A DNA stretch of 64,000 nt. Source: an uncultured Candidatus Saccharibacteria bacterium. GTDB taxonomy: Bacteria; Patescibacteriota; Saccharimonadia; Saccharimonadales; JAGQNJ01. The notes below the pieces were generated by a model, which was given only the letters and a program-made list of their open reading frames with translations, was not told where the DNA came from and searched no databases. Positions within the stretch are counted from its first letter, which is position 1; each line of letters opens with the position of its first letter. The position numbers and the translations under genes were made by a program. Positions 2,655 to 7,335 of this stretch are shown here, piece after piece. The stretch is taken from assembly GCA_964565615.1 (NCBI GenBank), contig CAZMFO010000001.1, forward strand, positions 19,513 to 83,512, read 5' to 3'.

Positions 2655-2830
2655 TATGGATGAGTGGCTATCAACCACGAAGCTAGTGAGAAGAAAGCCG
2701 ATCGGCAAGTAGACCTCACCGGGCAAGCCCGTAATAGCCGTAAGTAAGAGCTAAAAAAGTGATCAGCACTTCTTTTAGAAATCGGATGGTACCGTCCTAG
2801 CGCGCTGGGATTCCGATAGCTAAAAGGAGT
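2655..2830 (+). promoter_or_regulatory. Candidate structured cis-regulatory leader, T-box-like and possibly Ile-specific, with SD-sequestering potential
   Basis: About 230 nt noncoding with nested helices (GGCTAT 2666-71 / ATAGCC 2734-39; GTGAG / CTCAC). 4-bp stem GTGG/CCAC (2664-2678) presents the loop CUAUCAA containing AUC-A. AGUGAGA at 2685-91. CCGUAA twice (2729-34, 2738-43). AAUCGGA-UGGUACC-GU...UCCGAU (2779-2817) resembles the T-box antiterminator: helix plus 7-nt UGGNACC bulge. CACUUCUUUU (2767-76) is complementary to SD AAAAGGAGUG (2822-31) and also to AAAAAAGUG (2753-61). Confidence 0.3.
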
Positions 2831-2846
2831 GCTTTTAATACAAAAT

Positions 2847-3455
2847 ATGGCTGTAGATAGAAGAAAACGAATTTTGATATATGGCGATTCCAATACATGG
2901 GGTCAAATGAACTTCGACGGACGTTATCCAGAAGAGAAGCAATGGTGTTGGATTCTTCAAGACAAACTCGGAGATTATTATCGTGTTGTTCAGGAGGGAT
3001 TGCCGGCGCGTGTTGCGGGAGCGTTTGAAACAAAAAAGCCAGAACTAAACGGCAGGGTGTCATTTGAGGTTGCGTATCGCACCGCATTACCTTTAGATTT
3101 TGTAATAGTTGCGCTAGGCACAAACGATCTTAAAGAGCGATACGCCAGATCGGCTTCACAGATTGTTGATGATATACTCTGGTATAAAGAGAAGATCAAA
3201 AAGATCAAAGACACAATGATTGTGAAGGTCCCAAAAGTTATATTTATTGCACCACCAAATTTTGTAAGTAAAGATGAATATTTTCAGGCAGATGAAGTAA
3301 AACGACAAGAAGTAATCATTGGCTTGCGACAAAAAGAACAATCTGTCATCGCTTTTAACGACCTTAAGCTAACTGATGACGGTGTTCATTTTTCAGAAAA
3401 TGCTCATCAAGTCGTTGCAGAAGAAATACATAAAGTAATCGAGGAGAGATGGTGA
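2847..3455 (+). CDS. SGNH/GDSL-family hydrolase (lipase/esterase-like)
   Basis: ILIYGDSNTWG (block I with Ser), GTNDL (block III), DGVHFS (block V DxxH). Start taken at ATG 2847; the track's GTG at 2829 overlaps the SD. Confidence 0.75.
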   Translation: MAVDRRKRILIYGDSNTWGQMNFDGRYPEEKQWCWILQDKLGDYYRVVQEGLPARVAGAFETKKPELNGRVSFEVAYRTALPLDFVIVALGTNDLKERYARSASQIVDDILWYKEKIKKIKDTMIVKVPKVIFIAPPNFVSKDEYFQADEVKRQEVIIGLRQKEQSVIAFNDLKLTDDGVHFSENAHQVVAEEIHKVIEERW

Positions 3456-3483
3456 GTTTATTAATAAAAAAAGGAGTCGTGAA

Positions 3484-3876
3484 ATGGCATTAATAAAAGT
3501 GTACACACTAGAACAGAATAAGGAATATTTACATAAAAGTGTTGCAAATACGGTTAAGCTGATAGGAGCAGCTGCGTTGAATGTCGATGAGTTGCCAACG
3601 ACGCCAGAAAATATTGAGATTGTTTATGGTGAGGGAATAGATCTGGTAGGCATAGACTTTATATTAGAGGTTATTGCCGTCAAGAGGCAAAATCAACAAG
3701 ATATTGCTAGGTCGATGATAAGAGGGCTAGGCGAGGTATTTCCAAATAAACTATTTAGCATATATTTTAACAATATATCAGAGTCAGGAATGGCTAATAC
3801 CCCTAGAGCTACAAGTTCTTCTACTCCAATAACTATGGAGGAGGCGATAATGCGTAGTAGAAGGGAGGAAATATGA
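3484..3876 (+). CDS. Hypothetical protein (130 aa)
   Basis: Strong SD AAAGGAG 7 nt upstream. Its stop overlaps the ATG of ileS-start copy A (ATGA), implying an ancestral coupled junction with ileS. Confidence 0.55.
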   Translation: MALIKVYTLEQNKEYLHKSVANTVKLIGAAALNVDELPTTPENIEIVYGEGIDLVGIDFILEVIAVKRQNQQDIARSMIRGLGEVFPNKLFSIYFNNISESGMANTPRATSSSTPITMEEAIMRSRREEI

Positions 3877-3932
3877 AGTTTAAGCACGGAACAAGGCGTA
3901 GGGCGTTAGAATACGAAAAAGATTGGGCGAAG
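3861..3932 (+). repeat. Direct repeat copy A: duplicated SD plus first 20 codons of ileS
   Basis: 3873-3932 matches 4438-4497 at 58/60 nt. The upstream AGGAGGAA SD-like segment is also shared. Confidence 0.9.
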
Positions 3933-3980
3933 ACTCGTCCTAGGGAAAAATATGGCACAGCGAATAATCATACCTACTGA
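3873..3980 (+). pseudogene. Remnant 5' fragment of ileS (MKFKHGTRRRALEYEKDWAK + 15 unrelated codons, then stop); potentially a translated 35-aa leader peptide
   Basis: First 20 codons are identical to the IleRS N-terminus, then the sequence diverges. It overlaps the start of the nuclease ORF by 29 nt. Confidence 0.5.
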
Positions 3981-4329
3981 TATAAATCCACGACCAGAGC
4001 GTTTTGAGATTGAGGCTGCGAGTATTGTAGCGGAATATTTTGGTGTAGATGCAACTTTTCTTGTTAGAAAAAATGGAAGTACTCCAGACTGCGAAATCAA
4101 TGGCATAGAATGGGAGATAAAAAGTCCATTAGGTCGAGACAAGCATGTGATTGAAAATCAAATAAAACGCGCCTCTAGACAATCACTTTATATCATTATT
4201 GATGCAAGACATTGTAGGTTGCATATCGCTAAGATTCGCTCGCATTTGAAGCATAATGTATCTTTAAGAAAACATCTTAAGAGCGTGTTACTTATTAATA
4301 AGCATGGAAGTGTTGAGGTTATCAAATGA
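3952..4329 (+). CDS. Small PD-(D/E)xK nuclease-fold protein, Hjc / restriction-endonuclease-like
   Basis: PERFEIEAASIVAEYFGVDATFLVRKNGSTPDCEINGIEWEIKSP gives E...PD...ExK in Hjc-like spacing (ER ... GxxV.R..GS.PD ... ExKS). 125 aa. Lies between the two ileS-start repeats. Confidence 0.5.
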   Translation: MAQRIIIPTDINPRPERFEIEAASIVAEYFGVDATFLVRKNGSTPDCEINGIEWEIKSPLGRDKHVIENQIKRASRQSLYIIIDARHCRLHIAKIRSHLKHNVSLRKHLKSVLLINKHGSVEVIK

Positions 4330-4348
4330 AAGTATATCTAAAAAAAGG

Positions 4349-4383
4349 AACCGATGCTGTGCATATTCATCACTGCATCGGTT
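4349..4383 (+). terminator. Hairpin (AACCGATGC...GCATCGGTT, 9-bp stem plus 3 more pairs) downstream of the nuclease ORF; weak U-tract
   Basis: Inverted repeat read directly. Confidence 0.3.
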
Positions 4384-4423
4384 CGCTGTTACGAATTATA
4401 TCAAACAAAAGTGTAAAAGTCAA

Positions 4424-4497
4424 TCAAGGAGGAAGTGATGAAGTTTAAGCACGGAACAAGGCGTAGGGCACTAGAATACGAAAAAGATTGGGCGAAG
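4424..4497 (+). repeat. Direct repeat copy B: functional SD plus start of ileS
   Basis: See copy A. Confidence 0.9.
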
Positions 4498-7335
4498 CGT
4501 TGGAAGGAAAACAAAACTTTTGAAAAGTCTGTAGACCAGCGCCCAGAAGACAACAAATGGGTGTTTTATGATGGCCCGCCATTTTTGACCGGTACACCAC
4601 ATCACGGACATTTGCTGGTATCAACAGTAAAAGATACTATGGGTCGATACCACACTATGAAAGGCCAGCGAGTTGAAAGACGATGGGGCTGGGATTGTCA
4701 TGGTTTGCCGGCTGAAGTCTTTGTTGAAAAACAGCTTGGTATCAAGAATAAAAAAGAAATTGGCACCAAAATTAGCATTTCTGAATATGTTAAACAATGT
4801 CGTTCGGCTATGGTAAAAACTGGTACGGAGTGGGAGGACACGATTGAGCGTCTGGGTCGCTGGGTTGAGTTTGAAGGCGCCTACAAAACCATGGACAAAG
4901 AGTACATGGAGAGTGTTTGGTGGGCGTTTAAGGAACTTTACGATAACGGCAAAATCTATGAGGGCGAAAAGATTTTGGTATATTGCACCAAAGATGCAAC
5001 ACCAATTAGCAAGTCCGAAGTAGCTATGGAAAACAGCTATCAAATGGATACGGACCCGAGCGTTTATGTATATTTCAAATTAGAAGATAGTGTCTCAAGT
5101 GAGCAGGCTACTGACGATCAGACTTACATGCTAGCATGGACAACTACACCATGGACACTTCCGGCCAATGTGGCAGTGGCTGTCAATCCAAAGATTGAGT
5201 ATTCTTTGATCGAGCACGAGGGCAAGAAGTTTTATGTTGCTACCGAGGCTGTAGAGCGGGTAATGCAAGACGCCAAGAAACAACCTTTAGATTATAAGTT
5301 GCTTAAAAAGATAAAAGGCAAAGAGCTTGTTGGTAAAAGATACGAGCCATTGTTTGAGAACCACGGCCCAGATGCTCATAGAGTGCTTTTGGCTGATTTT
5401 GTAACAGCAACTGATGGAACTGGTTTGGTTCACGAAGCGCCGGCCTATGGTGAAGAAGATTATGAGCTTTGCAAAAAAGAGGGAGTACCGGTTGTTTCGA
5501 TTGTAGACGAAAATGGCATCTATACCTCCGGCCGTTGGCTAGGTGAAAATATCTGGGAAATCAACAAAACTATCGCCAAGACTCTGGTGGAAGAGGGCAA
5601 GGCGCTTAAGGTTGAGTATATTCGGCATGAGTATCCGCATTGTCATCGTTGTGGCACCAAGTTGATGTATCGGGCGCACCCGAGTTGGTTTATGGATATT
5701 CAATCGCAAAAGAAAGAAATGCTAGAGGAAAACGCCAAGACCAATTGGGTGCCAGACAATCTACGCACTGGGCGGTTTCATAACATCATTGAACAAGCTC
5801 CAGATTGGAACTTATCTCGTGATCGCTATTGGGCAACGCCAATCCCTGTTTGGAGAGGTGAGCGCAACGATGGAACTGAGGTTATTAAGGTTTTTGGTAG
5901 CTATCAAGAATTTGAAGAGTTTACCGGCAAGTACATGGATGACTATCACTTGCCAGAAGTGATGAATGTCACCTTTGAGTTGGATGGTGTGCAGATGCAT
6001 CACATTGGCAAAGTTTTGGATTGTTGGTTTGAAAGTGGCTCAATGCCGTTTGCTCAATTCCACTATCCGTTTGAAAACAAGGCCAAGTTTGAGAGTATGT
6101 TCCCGGCAGATTTTATTATTGAGGCCATTGATCAGACTCGCGGATGGTTTTATAGCCTGATGGCAGTCAATGTTGGACTGTTTGGCAAGGCTCCATGGAA
6201 GAACTTGATCTGTACGGGGTTTATCAATGCGTCAGATGGTAAGAAAATGAGTAAAAAGCTCAAAAACTACACTAATCCGATGGATTTGATAGATCAATAT
6301 TCAGCAGATAGTTTTAGGTTTTTGATGCTTTCTAGTCCTCTAACTAATGGGGAAAACTTTAGTTTAGCTGATAAAGATGTCGGCGTAATTGCCAGAAAAC
6401 TTAGCATGGTTTGGAATATGTACGATTTCTTTACTATGTATGCCGAAGTTGACGGCTGGGAGTTTGATCCAACTAAACCATTTGGGTTAGACCCAAATAA
6501 GCTAGATAATTCGCTTGATGCCTGGATAGTTTCGAGGCTACATCAGCTGAATAAAGAAGTTACCGAGCAATTGGATAGTTATGATATAGCAAAAGCAATC
6601 GAGCCAATTTTACCATTTGTTGATGATGCATCTAACTGGTATGTAAGGCGAAGTCGCCGTCGTTTTTGGAAGAGTGAGGACGATGACGATAAATCAGATG
6701 CTTACAGGACATTGCATTATGTTTTATTAAAACTTGCAGTTATTCTAGCGCCATTTACGCCTTTTCTAGCAGAAGAACTGTATCAAAAACTTGGCGGAGG
6801 GGTAGAGTCGGTGCATTTGCTGGATTGGCCAGCAAATTATTCTGTTGATCAGACCATTTTGGACGAGATGGCAACTGTGCGTAAGTATATCAACGATGGT
6901 TTGGGCCAACGAGCCGAAGCTGGTATCAAGGTGCGTCAACCATTACTTAGCGTCAAGATACCCGGTATGGGTAAAAAGGTTGGTTTTGGGTCAATCCTGA
7001 TGGACGAACTTAATGTTAAGCAGGTTGTTGTTGGGAAAGAAGTAGCAATCGACACCAAGATTACAAAAGAGCTTAAACAAGAAGGCCTAATGCGTGAAGT
7101 AATTAGGCTTGTACAAAATGCTCGCAAGCAGGCCGAACTTAATGTAGATGAGCGTATTAACCTTAGCTTGCTAACTAACGATAAAGATCTAAAAGAAGCA
7201 ATACAGCAATATAGTCAGATTATAAAAACCGAAACCTTGGCTACTAATCTTTCTGTTGATAAAATTACAGATAATCACAATAAATTAAGTATAGATGGGG
7301 CAGAAATAGCCATAATGATAAAAGTAAATAAATAA
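4438..7335 (+). CDS. ileS: Isoleucyl-tRNA synthetase
   Basis: HIGH motif PHHGHLL, KMSKS motif KMSKKL, editing domain region. 965 aa. SD AAGGAGGA 5 nt upstream of ATG 4438. Confidence 0.95.
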   Translation: MKFKHGTRRRALEYEKDWAKRWKENKTFEKSVDQRPEDNKWVFYDGPPFLTGTPHHGHLLVSTVKDTMGRYHTMKGQRVERRWGWDCHGLPAEVFVEKQLGIKNKKEIGTKISISEYVKQCRSAMVKTGTEWEDTIERLGRWVEFEGAYKTMDKEYMESVWWAFKELYDNGKIYEGEKILVYCTKDATPISKSEVAMENSYQMDTDPSVYVYFKLEDSVSSEQATDDQTYMLAWTTTPWTLPANVAVAVNPKIEYSLIEHEGKKFYVATEAVERVMQDAKKQPLDYKLLKKIKGKELVGKRYEPLFENHGPDAHRVLLADFVTATDGTGLVHEAPAYGEEDYELCKKEGVPVVSIVDENGIYTSGRWLGENIWEINKTIAKTLVEEGKALKVEYIRHEYPHCHRCGTKLMYRAHPSWFMDIQSQKKEMLEENAKTNWVPDNLRTGRFHNIIEQAPDWNLSRDRYWATPIPVWRGERNDGTEVIKVFGSYQEFEEFTGKYMDDYHLPEVMNVTFELDGVQMHHIGKVLDCWFESGSMPFAQFHYPFENKAKFESMFPADFIIEAIDQTRGWFYSLMAVNVGLFGKAPWKNLICTGFINASDGKKMSKKLKNYTNPMDLIDQYSADSFRFLMLSSPLTNGENFSLADKDVGVIARKLSMVWNMYDFFTMYAEVDGWEFDPTKPFGLDPNKLDNSLDAWIVSRLHQLNKEVTEQLDSYDIAKAIEPILPFVDDASNWYVRRSRRRFWKSEDDDDKSDAYRTLHYVLLKLAVILAPFTPFLAEELYQKLGGGVESVHLLDWPANYSVDQTILDEMATVRKYINDGLGQRAEAGIKVRQPLLSVKIPGMGKKVGFGSILMDELNVKQVVVGKEVAIDTKITKELKQEGLMREVIRLVQNARKQAELNVDERINLSLLTNDKDLKEAIQQYSQIIKTETLATNLSVDKITDNHNKLSIDGAEIAIMIKVNK

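Follow-up and report, generated by a model that had tools for sequence, protein, structure and literature searches.

Within a stretch of 64,000 nucleotides from an uncultured Candidatus Saccharibacteria bacterium (contig CAZMFO010000001.1, hereafter the window), positions 3933-4437 are a horizontally mobile cassette of two parts, a nuclease gene and a 3' module, lodged in the 5' end of ileS, the gene for isoleucyl-tRNA synthetase (IleRS). The first 60 nt of ileS stand on both sides of it, and the cassette belongs with the selfish nuclease or toxin cassettes. That a mobile cassette inserted here with duplication of its target, the start of ileS, is in our view very probable. The further reading of the sequences, in which the nuclease is a toxin and the 3' module encodes its RNA regulator, is plausible but tentative, and we lean slightly towards the complete account, a mobile cassette spread by recombination and made of a toxin and an RNA, as the best explanation taken as a whole.

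A cassette between two copies of the ileS start

The features of the locus are given below in window coordinates. Numbers such as L001 denote public loci or contigs that were retrieved and compared with the window.

3484..3876, plus strand: hyp130, the original upstream neighbour of ileS, whose stop TGA overlaps the ATG of copy A (ATGA)
3863..3870, plus strand: Shine-Dalgarno sequence GGGAGGAA of the original hyp130-ileS junction, read from the sequence, which now serves the remnant open reading frame (ORF)
3873..3932, plus strand: copy A, ileS nt 1-60, the left direct repeat, 58/60 identical to copy B
3873..3980, plus strand: remnant or leader ORF of 35 codons (20 from IleRS and 15 new), overlapping the nuclease start by 29 nt
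3933..4437, plus strand: inserted cassette of 505 bp between the repeats, absent from the otherwise identical contig L010
3952..4329, plus strand: nuclease of 125 aa, a stand-alone PD-(D/E)XK protein of the Pfam family CdiA_C (PF18451)
4326..4448, plus strand: bridging ORF of 40 codons, whose ATG overlaps the nuclease stop and which crosses the hairpin and ends 11 nt inside ileS
4340..4388, minus strand: predicted antisense small RNA of about 50 nt (hairpin and U7 tail), its ends inferred
4348..4384, strand not assigned: conserved hairpin with a 14-bp stem, a 9-nt loop and an invariant T.T (U.U) mismatch
4395..4423, minus strand: sigma-70-type promoter, TTGACT, 17 nt and a TG-extended TATAAT, 11/12 consensus match
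4426..4434, plus strand: Shine-Dalgarno sequence AAGGAGGAA at the right cassette edge, read from the sequence, which serves the intact ileS
4438..4497, plus strand: copy B, ileS nt 1-60, the right direct repeat and the start of the functional gene
4438..7335, plus strand: intact ileS, 965 codons from the ATG

The two copies of the 60-mer share an exact 32-mer and differ at adjacent positions 33-34, which read GT in copy A and AC in copy B, and dinucleotide shuffles of the window gave no match to the 60-mer with three or fewer mismatches. Both differences are synonymous in the IleRS frame, which is not significant alone because of the codon positions that they occupy (the third position of an Ala codon and a C/T first position of a Leu codon). 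A GGAGGAA Shine-Dalgarno stands in front of copy A and copy B alike. The cassette itself consists of a 19-nt leader, the 125-codon ORF and a 108-nt spacer with the hairpin and the right-hand Shine-Dalgarno, and its borders read copy A then ACTCGTCC at the left and GTCAATCAAGGAGGAAGTG then copy B at the right. The original prediction, made from this DNA alone, had described much of this anatomy: a duplicated ileS start with a similar Shine-Dalgarno before each copy, the decay of copy A into a 35-codon remnant that runs 29 nt into the nuclease gene, a 505-bp segment encoding a 125-aa protein with an E...PD...ExK arrangement, and a copy B that restores ileS with a Shine-Dalgarno of its own. Direct comparison, the shuffles and the reading of the ORFs bear this out, the motif being kept in 32 homologues and ileS being a 965-codon ORF behind AAGGAGGAA.

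The ATGA overlap of hyp130 and copy A had also been read as the ancestral hyp130-ileS junction, from which an empty-site allele with a single 60-mer was predicted, and L010 is this allele. In L010, a contig assembled from short reads at k=31 (Logan, SRR25435999), hyp130 adjoins an uninterrupted ileS through ATGA. Its sequence is that of window positions 3314-3904 followed directly by 4470-5742 and is 100% identical apart from the repeat variant and the Shine-Dalgarno; its repeat carries AC and is followed by CGTTGG, and copy B and the 1.3 kb downstream of it are identical to L010. The exact hyp130 protein is found on two Logan contigs, L010 and L009 (SRR36479851). The latter ends exactly 30 nt into copy A, which is where a break in a k=31 graph would fall if two left contexts existed for the shared 32-mer.

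It is highly improbable that the arrangement is an assembly artefact, that is, a collapsed or chimeric repeat from the co-assembly of two strains. Such an origin would agree with the exact 32-mer in both repeats, with the end of L009, which is how a graph branch behaves, and with the record of the exact nuclease protein in one NCBI assembly only; when the nuclease, the 965-aa IleRS and the 35-aa remnant were looked up by exact sequence, none returned a match, and a second assembly of the occupied allele was not found. However, the junction of copy A (nt 60) with the cassette is, together with the GT variant, unique sequence beyond the reach of any graph mis-join, and an ileS fragment precedes the nuclease whatever lies upstream. 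Moreover, L073, which comes from another assembly and has diverged copies, independently shows the same architecture, and L013 and L176 show shorter versions of it.

The distribution of the nuclease is patchy. Relatives were collected in a scan with one genome per species, which gave 80 Saccharibacteria loci with an IleRS 70-94% identical over the first 400 aa. The nuclease is present in three of these (L013, L069 and L073), always 105-366 nt upstream of ileS. Every carrier in the clade has a closest IleRS neighbour without the nuclease, and L011, the nearest relative of the window (IleRS 94-96%), is also without it. The identities of the two proteins are out of step: L005 and L073 share 84% in the nuclease and 45% in IleRS, the window and L001 share 80% and 50%, and the window and L073 share 61% and 77%. 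As judged from these sequences, the nuclease phylogeny conflicts with that of IleRS.

The clearest trace of exchange is seen in L001 and L002, which encode the same nuclease protein and are 100% identical at the nucleotide level from about nt 11 of the nuclease gene up to a point 4 nt short of the ileS ATG. The two loci have unrelated DNA upstream, and their ileS genes, which carry different inserted domains, mostly match at 80-96% in the parts that align. The exchanged unit is therefore the nuclease ORF with its spacer. The IleRS proteins with inserted domains (L001:5485-8871 and L002:5375-8923) are 1128-1182 aa long, the inserted domain being LMWPc phosphatase-like in L001 and L003 and a Ser_hydrolase/alpha-beta hydrolase in L002 and L004.

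The nuclease is old and under purifying selection, because its pairwise non-synonymous differences are low (pN 0.10-0.35) and its synonymous ones saturated (pS about 0.8). This selection, with the saturated synonymous sites, could also be expected of an ancient operon partner of ileS, inherited vertically and lost often, in which an RNA-processing or regulatory nuclease works together with a leader hairpin and the duplication in the window is an unrelated rearrangement. The tight packing, the apparent translational coupling to ileS via the bridging ORF in 7/9 loci and the shared wider neighbourhood (FtsZ-NrdR-RNR ... ileS-L21) speak for this possibility as well. Nevertheless, we regard it as very unlikely: the nuclease is absent from 77 of the 80 species (IleRS at least 70%), the nearest relative of each carrier included, its identities and those of IleRS are strongly discordant, and a 100% identical cassette is found in genomes with differing ileS, while cassettes also occur at sites other than ileS. 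In addition, the empty allele has no hairpin either, so ileS has no need of one.

Other start duplications and insertion sites

The window is not the only locus with a duplicated ileS start. In L073, positions 1061-1123 repeat nt 1-63 of its own ileS with 52/63 matches (local score 76, where shuffles reach at most 24). This copy forms a 22-codon ORF whose TGA overlaps the GTG of the nuclease. The breakpoints, nt 63 here and nt 60 in the window, fall within one codon. Because its copies have diverged by about 17%, the L073 duplication is a separate, older event, or an old flank. The first 130 nt or so of ileS in L073 are closer to L001 (91-100%) than to its closest relative, L023. Similarly, the nuclease of L013 starts from a 27-nt copy of the Shine-Dalgarno and first codons of its own ileS (score 35 versus 28), and in several homologues an N-terminal MK.K(H/G) extension has the look of another, decayed start relic. 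Direct repeats were searched for in L001, L002, L005 and L006 and none were found; these are older cassettes without a recognisable ileS relic, and most cassettes have by now lost theirs.

Ten distinct contexts are linked to ileS (the window, L001/L003, L002/L004, L005, L006-L008, L013, L069, L073, L177-L179 and L180-L182), and the genes upstream of the cassettes in them are unrelated (methyltransferase, AAA_33, CBU_0592, GNAT/SET and GmrSD/HNH). The idea that the nuclease always lies next to ileS was falsified by two further kinds of site. The commonest cluster of homologues, P0020 (67% identical, in 90 blocks of the collection), is found between the type III restriction-modification genes mod and res, and P0038 (48% identical) stands before a CYTH gene; at both sites, the nuclease is followed by the same 3' module. 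Here too a start may be copied, since in L176 the start of the nuclease duplicates the Shine-Dalgarno and start of the downstream CYTH gene (score 32 versus 26). The proposal of a selfish cassette inserted with target duplication is largely supported for the window, where L010, the presence in 3/80 species, the incongruent phylogenies and L073 all speak for it, but an account confined to ileS is not, as the same cassette occurs outside it, between mod and res.

These other sites have peculiarities of their own. In L176, a second promoter half of the 3' module (TATAGCA...GTCAAG...AAGGAGGAAAAATG) lies upstream of the 48%-identical nuclease (L176:3930-4000 and 4385-4520), and the nuclease is therefore flanked by direct repeats that include the Shine-Dalgarno and start of the CYTH gene. 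In L171-L175 (for example L171:3001-3497), P0020 stands between mod (N6_N4_Mtase) and res (ResIII/RE_endonuc) with a bridging ORF of 38 codons, and in L175 an additional spacer module of a different kind is present in tandem.

The junction 5' of ileS is itself a hotspot, with 23 unrelated neighbour families among the 52 loci that have a close upstream ORF. In eight other Saccharibacteria species the gene upstream of ileS, at a gap of 26-27 nt, belongs to T5orf172/MUG113 (GIY-YIG superfamily; Pfam E 1e-7), with a length of 199-200 aa in seven of them (L036, L041, L044, L049, L050, L054 and L056) and a truncated form in L034; the junction therefore also hosts a second nuclease-type family, unrelated to the first. 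Both families meet in L012 (5694-6000), where a fusion joins the first 63 or so codons of T5orf172 to the final codons of the PD-(D/E)XK gene, and an intact hairpin and promoter module with compensatory stem changes comes next, then ileS. This hybrid is therefore a deletion scar, and the ancestral order was T5orf172, cassette, ileS. In L069 (5640-6000), the 366-nt gap between nuclease and ileS holds two hairpin modules, the second preceded by a relic of a nuclease 3' end, and the sequence suggests two successive insertions of the cassette at one site.

The upstream gene of the window appears to have a similar history. A GDSL lipase-like gene directly abuts ileS in L025, L026, L028 and L067 (gap of 6-9 nt), and its homologue in the window (2829-3455) is separated from ileS by hyp130; thus, hyp130 itself is an earlier, species-specific insertion at the junction. 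Across the 80 species loci hyp130 was seen in this species only, and it has no match in Pfam, NCBIfam or PADLOC.

The nuclease and its 3' module

The nuclease matches the Pfam family CdiA_C (PF18451) with 48.8 bits (gathering cutoff 26.6, E 8.2e-13) over 80/81 profile positions. Its 39 homologues are 124-156 aa long and 44-80% identical, every one has a precomputed PF18451 match, and all those whose source bears an organism name are from Saccharibacteria. In an alignment of 32 of these sequences, E19, P45, D46 and K57 of the E..PD..ExK motif are invariant and E55 is kept in at least 90%; the PD aligns, by profile, with the PD of 4g6v_A. An AlphaFold2 model of the protein reaches a pLDDT of 93, and a Foldseek search of the PDB gave a single significant match, again 4g6v_A, the CdiA-CT toxin of B. 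pseudomallei 1026b (E 1.4e-5, TM 0.65). The modelled fold is a PD-(D/E)XK core with the CdiA-CT 1026b structure as its nearest neighbour. The original prediction had compared the protein with archaeal Hjc and restriction-endonuclease-fold enzymes and had proposed a structure check: the restriction-endonuclease fold was recovered, whereas the Hjc label falls, the sole significant PDB match being 4g6v_A and the family CdiA_C. Among solved structures, the CdiA-CT tRNase toxins of Burkholderia pseudomallei 1026b and E479 come closest to it.

The family is large. In an all-against-all profile search, 1,154 clusters at 50% identity match it, and the best 150 of its representatives are almost all free-standing proteins of 85-180 aa. 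A PDB sequence search with the single nuclease protein gave no match and one with a profile gave 4g6v_A as a weak top match (E 0.2); PADLOC and NCBIfam hold no match to the nuclease, and a scan of IMG/VR with its alignment found no relatives. The nuclease also matches the C-terminal 110 or so residues of PHROG 13257, annotated as a head maturation protease (E 3.8e-5), a sequence match that hints at fusions of the domain to phage proteins. Both characterised members of PF18451, CdiA-CTII Bp1026b and SitA3, are tRNases (PMC9990079, PMC9086364), and they are the only ones for which a Mg-dependent tRNase activity is known within the family (PMC9086364, PMC9990079). By analogy, this knowledge of the family favours RNA rather than DNA as the likely substrate of the cassette nuclease.

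The gene organisation differs from that of contact-dependent or polymorphic toxins, as the nuclease is a stand-alone ORF of 125 aa and not the C-terminal domain of a large protein. No conserved immunity gene or protein partner was found next to it: the downstream gene is ileS, res or CYTH, and the neighbours vary by context. As an immunity protein, hyp130 is ruled out, since the empty allele has it and all other cassettes lack it. Nor is the layout that of an insertion sequence or transposon, the insert containing no transposase or recombinase and its ends no inverted repeats. Moreover, a duplication of 60 nt far exceeds the usual target-site duplications.

What does accompany the nuclease is the 3' module, of about 105 nt, whose nucleotide conservation is far above that of the synonymous sites of the nuclease gene; indeed, the 108-nt spacer is almost invariant among cassettes in which those sites are saturated. 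The module is single-copy in the window, and within L001-L090 and the first 12 kb of the window every occurrence is immediately upstream of ileS, together with the nuclease or, in L012, with its remnant. Homologues below about 45% identity are without it and lie in varied accessory contexts. The hairpin that the original prediction had placed after the nuclease is real, but it is not a simple trailing hairpin: it is part of this conserved module, together with a promoter on the minus strand. When covariation was scored in 14 distinct cassettes, 92% of cells were paired, 7/13 pairs had double-sided changes and the T.T mismatch was invariant, against a pairing of at most 47% in slid controls. 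Rfam 15, searched over 3400-4700, has nothing on the hairpin and gave three chance-level matches elsewhere (E 4.6-9).

On the minus strand, TTGACT-17-TGaTATAAT is the best promoter-like site in 3300-5000 (11/12), and about 10 nt past its -10 element come the hairpin and then U7 (fold -20.2 kcal/mol, z -4.8). The promoter, its spacing, the distance to the hairpin and the U-tract are common to 17 cassettes, those at other genomic sites included. From the conserved promoter, the covarying hairpin and the U-tract on this strand, an antisense RNA of about 50 nt, convergent with the nuclease gene, is therefore predicted.

An equivalent of the bridging ORF is present in 7/9 cassette loci, its ATG overlapping the nuclease stop and its frame over the hairpin not being conserved. 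Judging from its position, it is probably a translational-coupling relay across the hairpin, and a functional peptide is unlikely. These ORFs (window, L001, L002, L005, L006, L012 and L013) start as AATGA at the nuclease stop and end at or just inside the ileS start, with ATGA in L001, L006 and L012 and in frame with ileS in L002; the peptides that they would encode are not conserved throughout. Other roles for the region were tried and rejected. A conserved peptide or immunity protein is ruled out, since the frame differs between loci and two loci have no ORF, and the loop is unfit for an IleRS operator, a mimic of the tRNA-Ile anticodon arm or a T-box. These roles of the hairpin were dropped also because the empty allele and 77 species are without it and because it travels with the nuclease to sites other than ileS. 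One arm resembles, at 9/10 positions, the XerC arm of E. coli dif; a second arm and an integrase are lacking, and an attC/dif-like site was dropped as well.

Proposed spread of the cassette and its place among selfish elements

We propose that the cassette would spread by a double crossover in the flanking ileS sequence, which could place it before any ileS of sufficient similarity, irrespective of the upstream sequence. On the left, the exchange would take place in copy A, with its very conserved GAATACGAAAAAGATTGGG block, and on the right in ileS proper, while recombination of repeat with repeat would remove the cassette precisely. Flanks of ileS sequence and recombination would together account for a right neighbour that stays the same, a left one that varies and breakpoints as close to each other as nt 60 and nt 63. 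In the occupied allele, the Shine-Dalgarno and start of copy A would drive the leader ORF into the nuclease start, and the right cassette edge would supply the Shine-Dalgarno for ileS. We further propose, more tentatively, that the nuclease is a toxin-type RNase, probably a tRNase, and that the hairpin RNA restrains it, acting either as an antisense to its 3' untranslated region or as a protein-binding decoy. On this view, the cassette would be an addictive selfish module and not a classical homing endonuclease.

The main rival to this toxin and recombination reading is precisely a true free-standing homing endonuclease, which would cut cassette-free ileS near nt 60, by the conserved EYEKDW-coding block, and whose cassette would be copied in by repair from the occupied allele, with copy A and ileS as homology arms. 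Homing would account for nearly the same breakpoint in two events of very different age, for a target within a conserved stretch of an essential gene and for the patchy distribution, the incongruent phylogeny and the empty site. It would also agree with the signs of decay and re-invasion (a second hairpin with a nuclease 3' relic in L069, a tail with the 3' module only in L012), with the unrelated T5orf172 gene at the same junction in eight other species and with the 5' end of the L073 ileS, whose 130 or so nt nearer to L001 than to L023 are like a co-conversion tract. PD-(D/E)XK homing endonucleases are known, for example I-Ssp6803I.

Still, we consider homing unlikely. The two best structural relatives of the nuclease are tRNases and not DNases, and the same is true of both characterised PF18451 members. 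The occupied allele keeps the complete empty-site sequence, with hyp130 to nt 32 intact at copy A and everything from nt 1 of copy B onward identical to L010, so that neither disruption nor polymorphism protects it: the occupied allele still contains any empty-site stretch of less than about 60 nt, the sole exception being one that spans the hyp130 flank and nt 33-34. Furthermore, homologues of 67% identity with the same 3' module lie between type III mod and res and one of 48% before a CYTH gene, and the 100% identical tract of L001 and L002 stops sharply at the ileS ATG, with no trailing into ileS.

Several points also weigh against the toxin and recombination reading that we prefer. Instead of being a naive target, L010 could have lost the cassette secondarily by deletion between the repeats, as a crossover within nt 1-32 of the repeats gives exactly its sequence, or, less likely, it could be a graph artefact; whichever its origin, presence and absence of the cassette coexist at near-zero flank divergence. 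The linkage of hyp130 and copy A in the window depends on the assembler having resolved the shared 32-mer, and no start duplication was detected at the mod/res site. In addition, recombination leaves the origin of the first duplication unexplained, for which template switching or one-sided homologous plus illegitimate joining are possible routes. As for the RNA, its promoter and terminator are consensus matches, though conserved, and it would be antisense to the region past the nuclease stop only, not to the ORF or ribosome-binding site. The hairpin covariation, read from the alignment, would be equally compatible with a palindromic double-stranded DNA site for a dimeric protein; the asymmetry of the invariant T.T speaks for a folded single strand, though it is no proof.

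Known systems share some of these features. CdiA-CTII Bp1026b (PDB 4G6V) and SitA3 of Myxococcus xanthus are PF18451 PD-(D/E)XK tRNase toxins and thus belong to the family of the cassette nuclease. However, they are C-terminal domains of large delivered toxins with an adjacent immunity protein, whereas the cassette nuclease, at about 20% identity to them, is a free-standing protein of 125 aa with no conserved protein partner, has an RNA-like 3' module and lies before housekeeping or restriction-modification genes. The free-standing homing endonuclease genes of T-even phages, seg and mob, which spread by 'intronless homing', resemble the cassette in being small nuclease genes by an essential gene, patchily distributed, with an empty allele and with spread and decay. 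In contrast to them, the known members of the cassette nuclease's family are RNases, its target is duplicated rather than disrupted or polymorphic, and the cassette has an antisense-RNA-like module and also sits at unrelated sites.

Type I toxin-antitoxin systems include some with a convergent or 3'-overlapping antisense RNA, such as par/Fst RNAI-RNAII with its shared bidirectional terminator, txpA/RatA and bsrG/SR4, and others with nuclease toxins, such as RalR/RalA and SymE/SymR. Like them, the cassette combines a toxin-type gene with a predicted small convergent RNA that has its own promoter and terminator over the 3' region of the toxin mRNA, lacks a protein antitoxin, and is small, mobile and patchy. 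Unlike theirs, its predicted RNA, of about 50 nt, would be essentially a terminator hairpin only, with no overlap of the ORF or ribosome-binding site, and its toxin candidate is a PD-(D/E)XK enzyme, not a membrane peptide. Finally, integrative islands and prophages insert in the ends of tRNA or tmRNA genes and carry a replacement end. There, as here, direct repeats of the target gene flank the element, the duplicated end keeps the gene functional and recombination between the repeats restores the empty site. The cassette differs in its size of 0.5 kb, in the absence of an integrase and in its target, the 5' end of a protein gene, for which it must supply a ribosome-binding site; moreover, the leftover 5' fragment is reused to translate the cassette's own gene.

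In the searchable literature we found no description of the cassette. We could speculate, with considerable doubt, that the unit is an undescribed toxin-antitoxin or selfish module, in which a stand-alone tRNase of the CdiA-CT type is paired with a cognate, convergent hairpin RNA of about 50 nt, acting by antisense pairing or as a decoy for the protein, in a recombinase-free cassette of about 0.5 kb that spreads by 'start duplication'. By this we mean that the cassette would enter the 5' end of a gene, preferentially ileS, bring a replacement start and reuse the orphaned start for its own translation, and that the flanks gained from the target would make it portable to related genomes by ordinary recombination.

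The locus thus offers a testable example of a very small, recombinase-free selfish element in an essential gene of a reduced Saccharibacteria genome, whose host survives through duplication of the gene start. With it, the CdiA_C toxin fold comes to include a large family of proteins that stand alone, and the candidate RNA partner could be a new type of antitoxin. Moreover, it identifies the junction 5' of ileS as an insertion point used by at least two unrelated families of nuclease genes. For the annotation of these genomes, such insertions matter as a source of spurious short 'IleRS' ORFs and mis-called ileS starts, and they are relevant as strain-level markers in Saccharibacteria.

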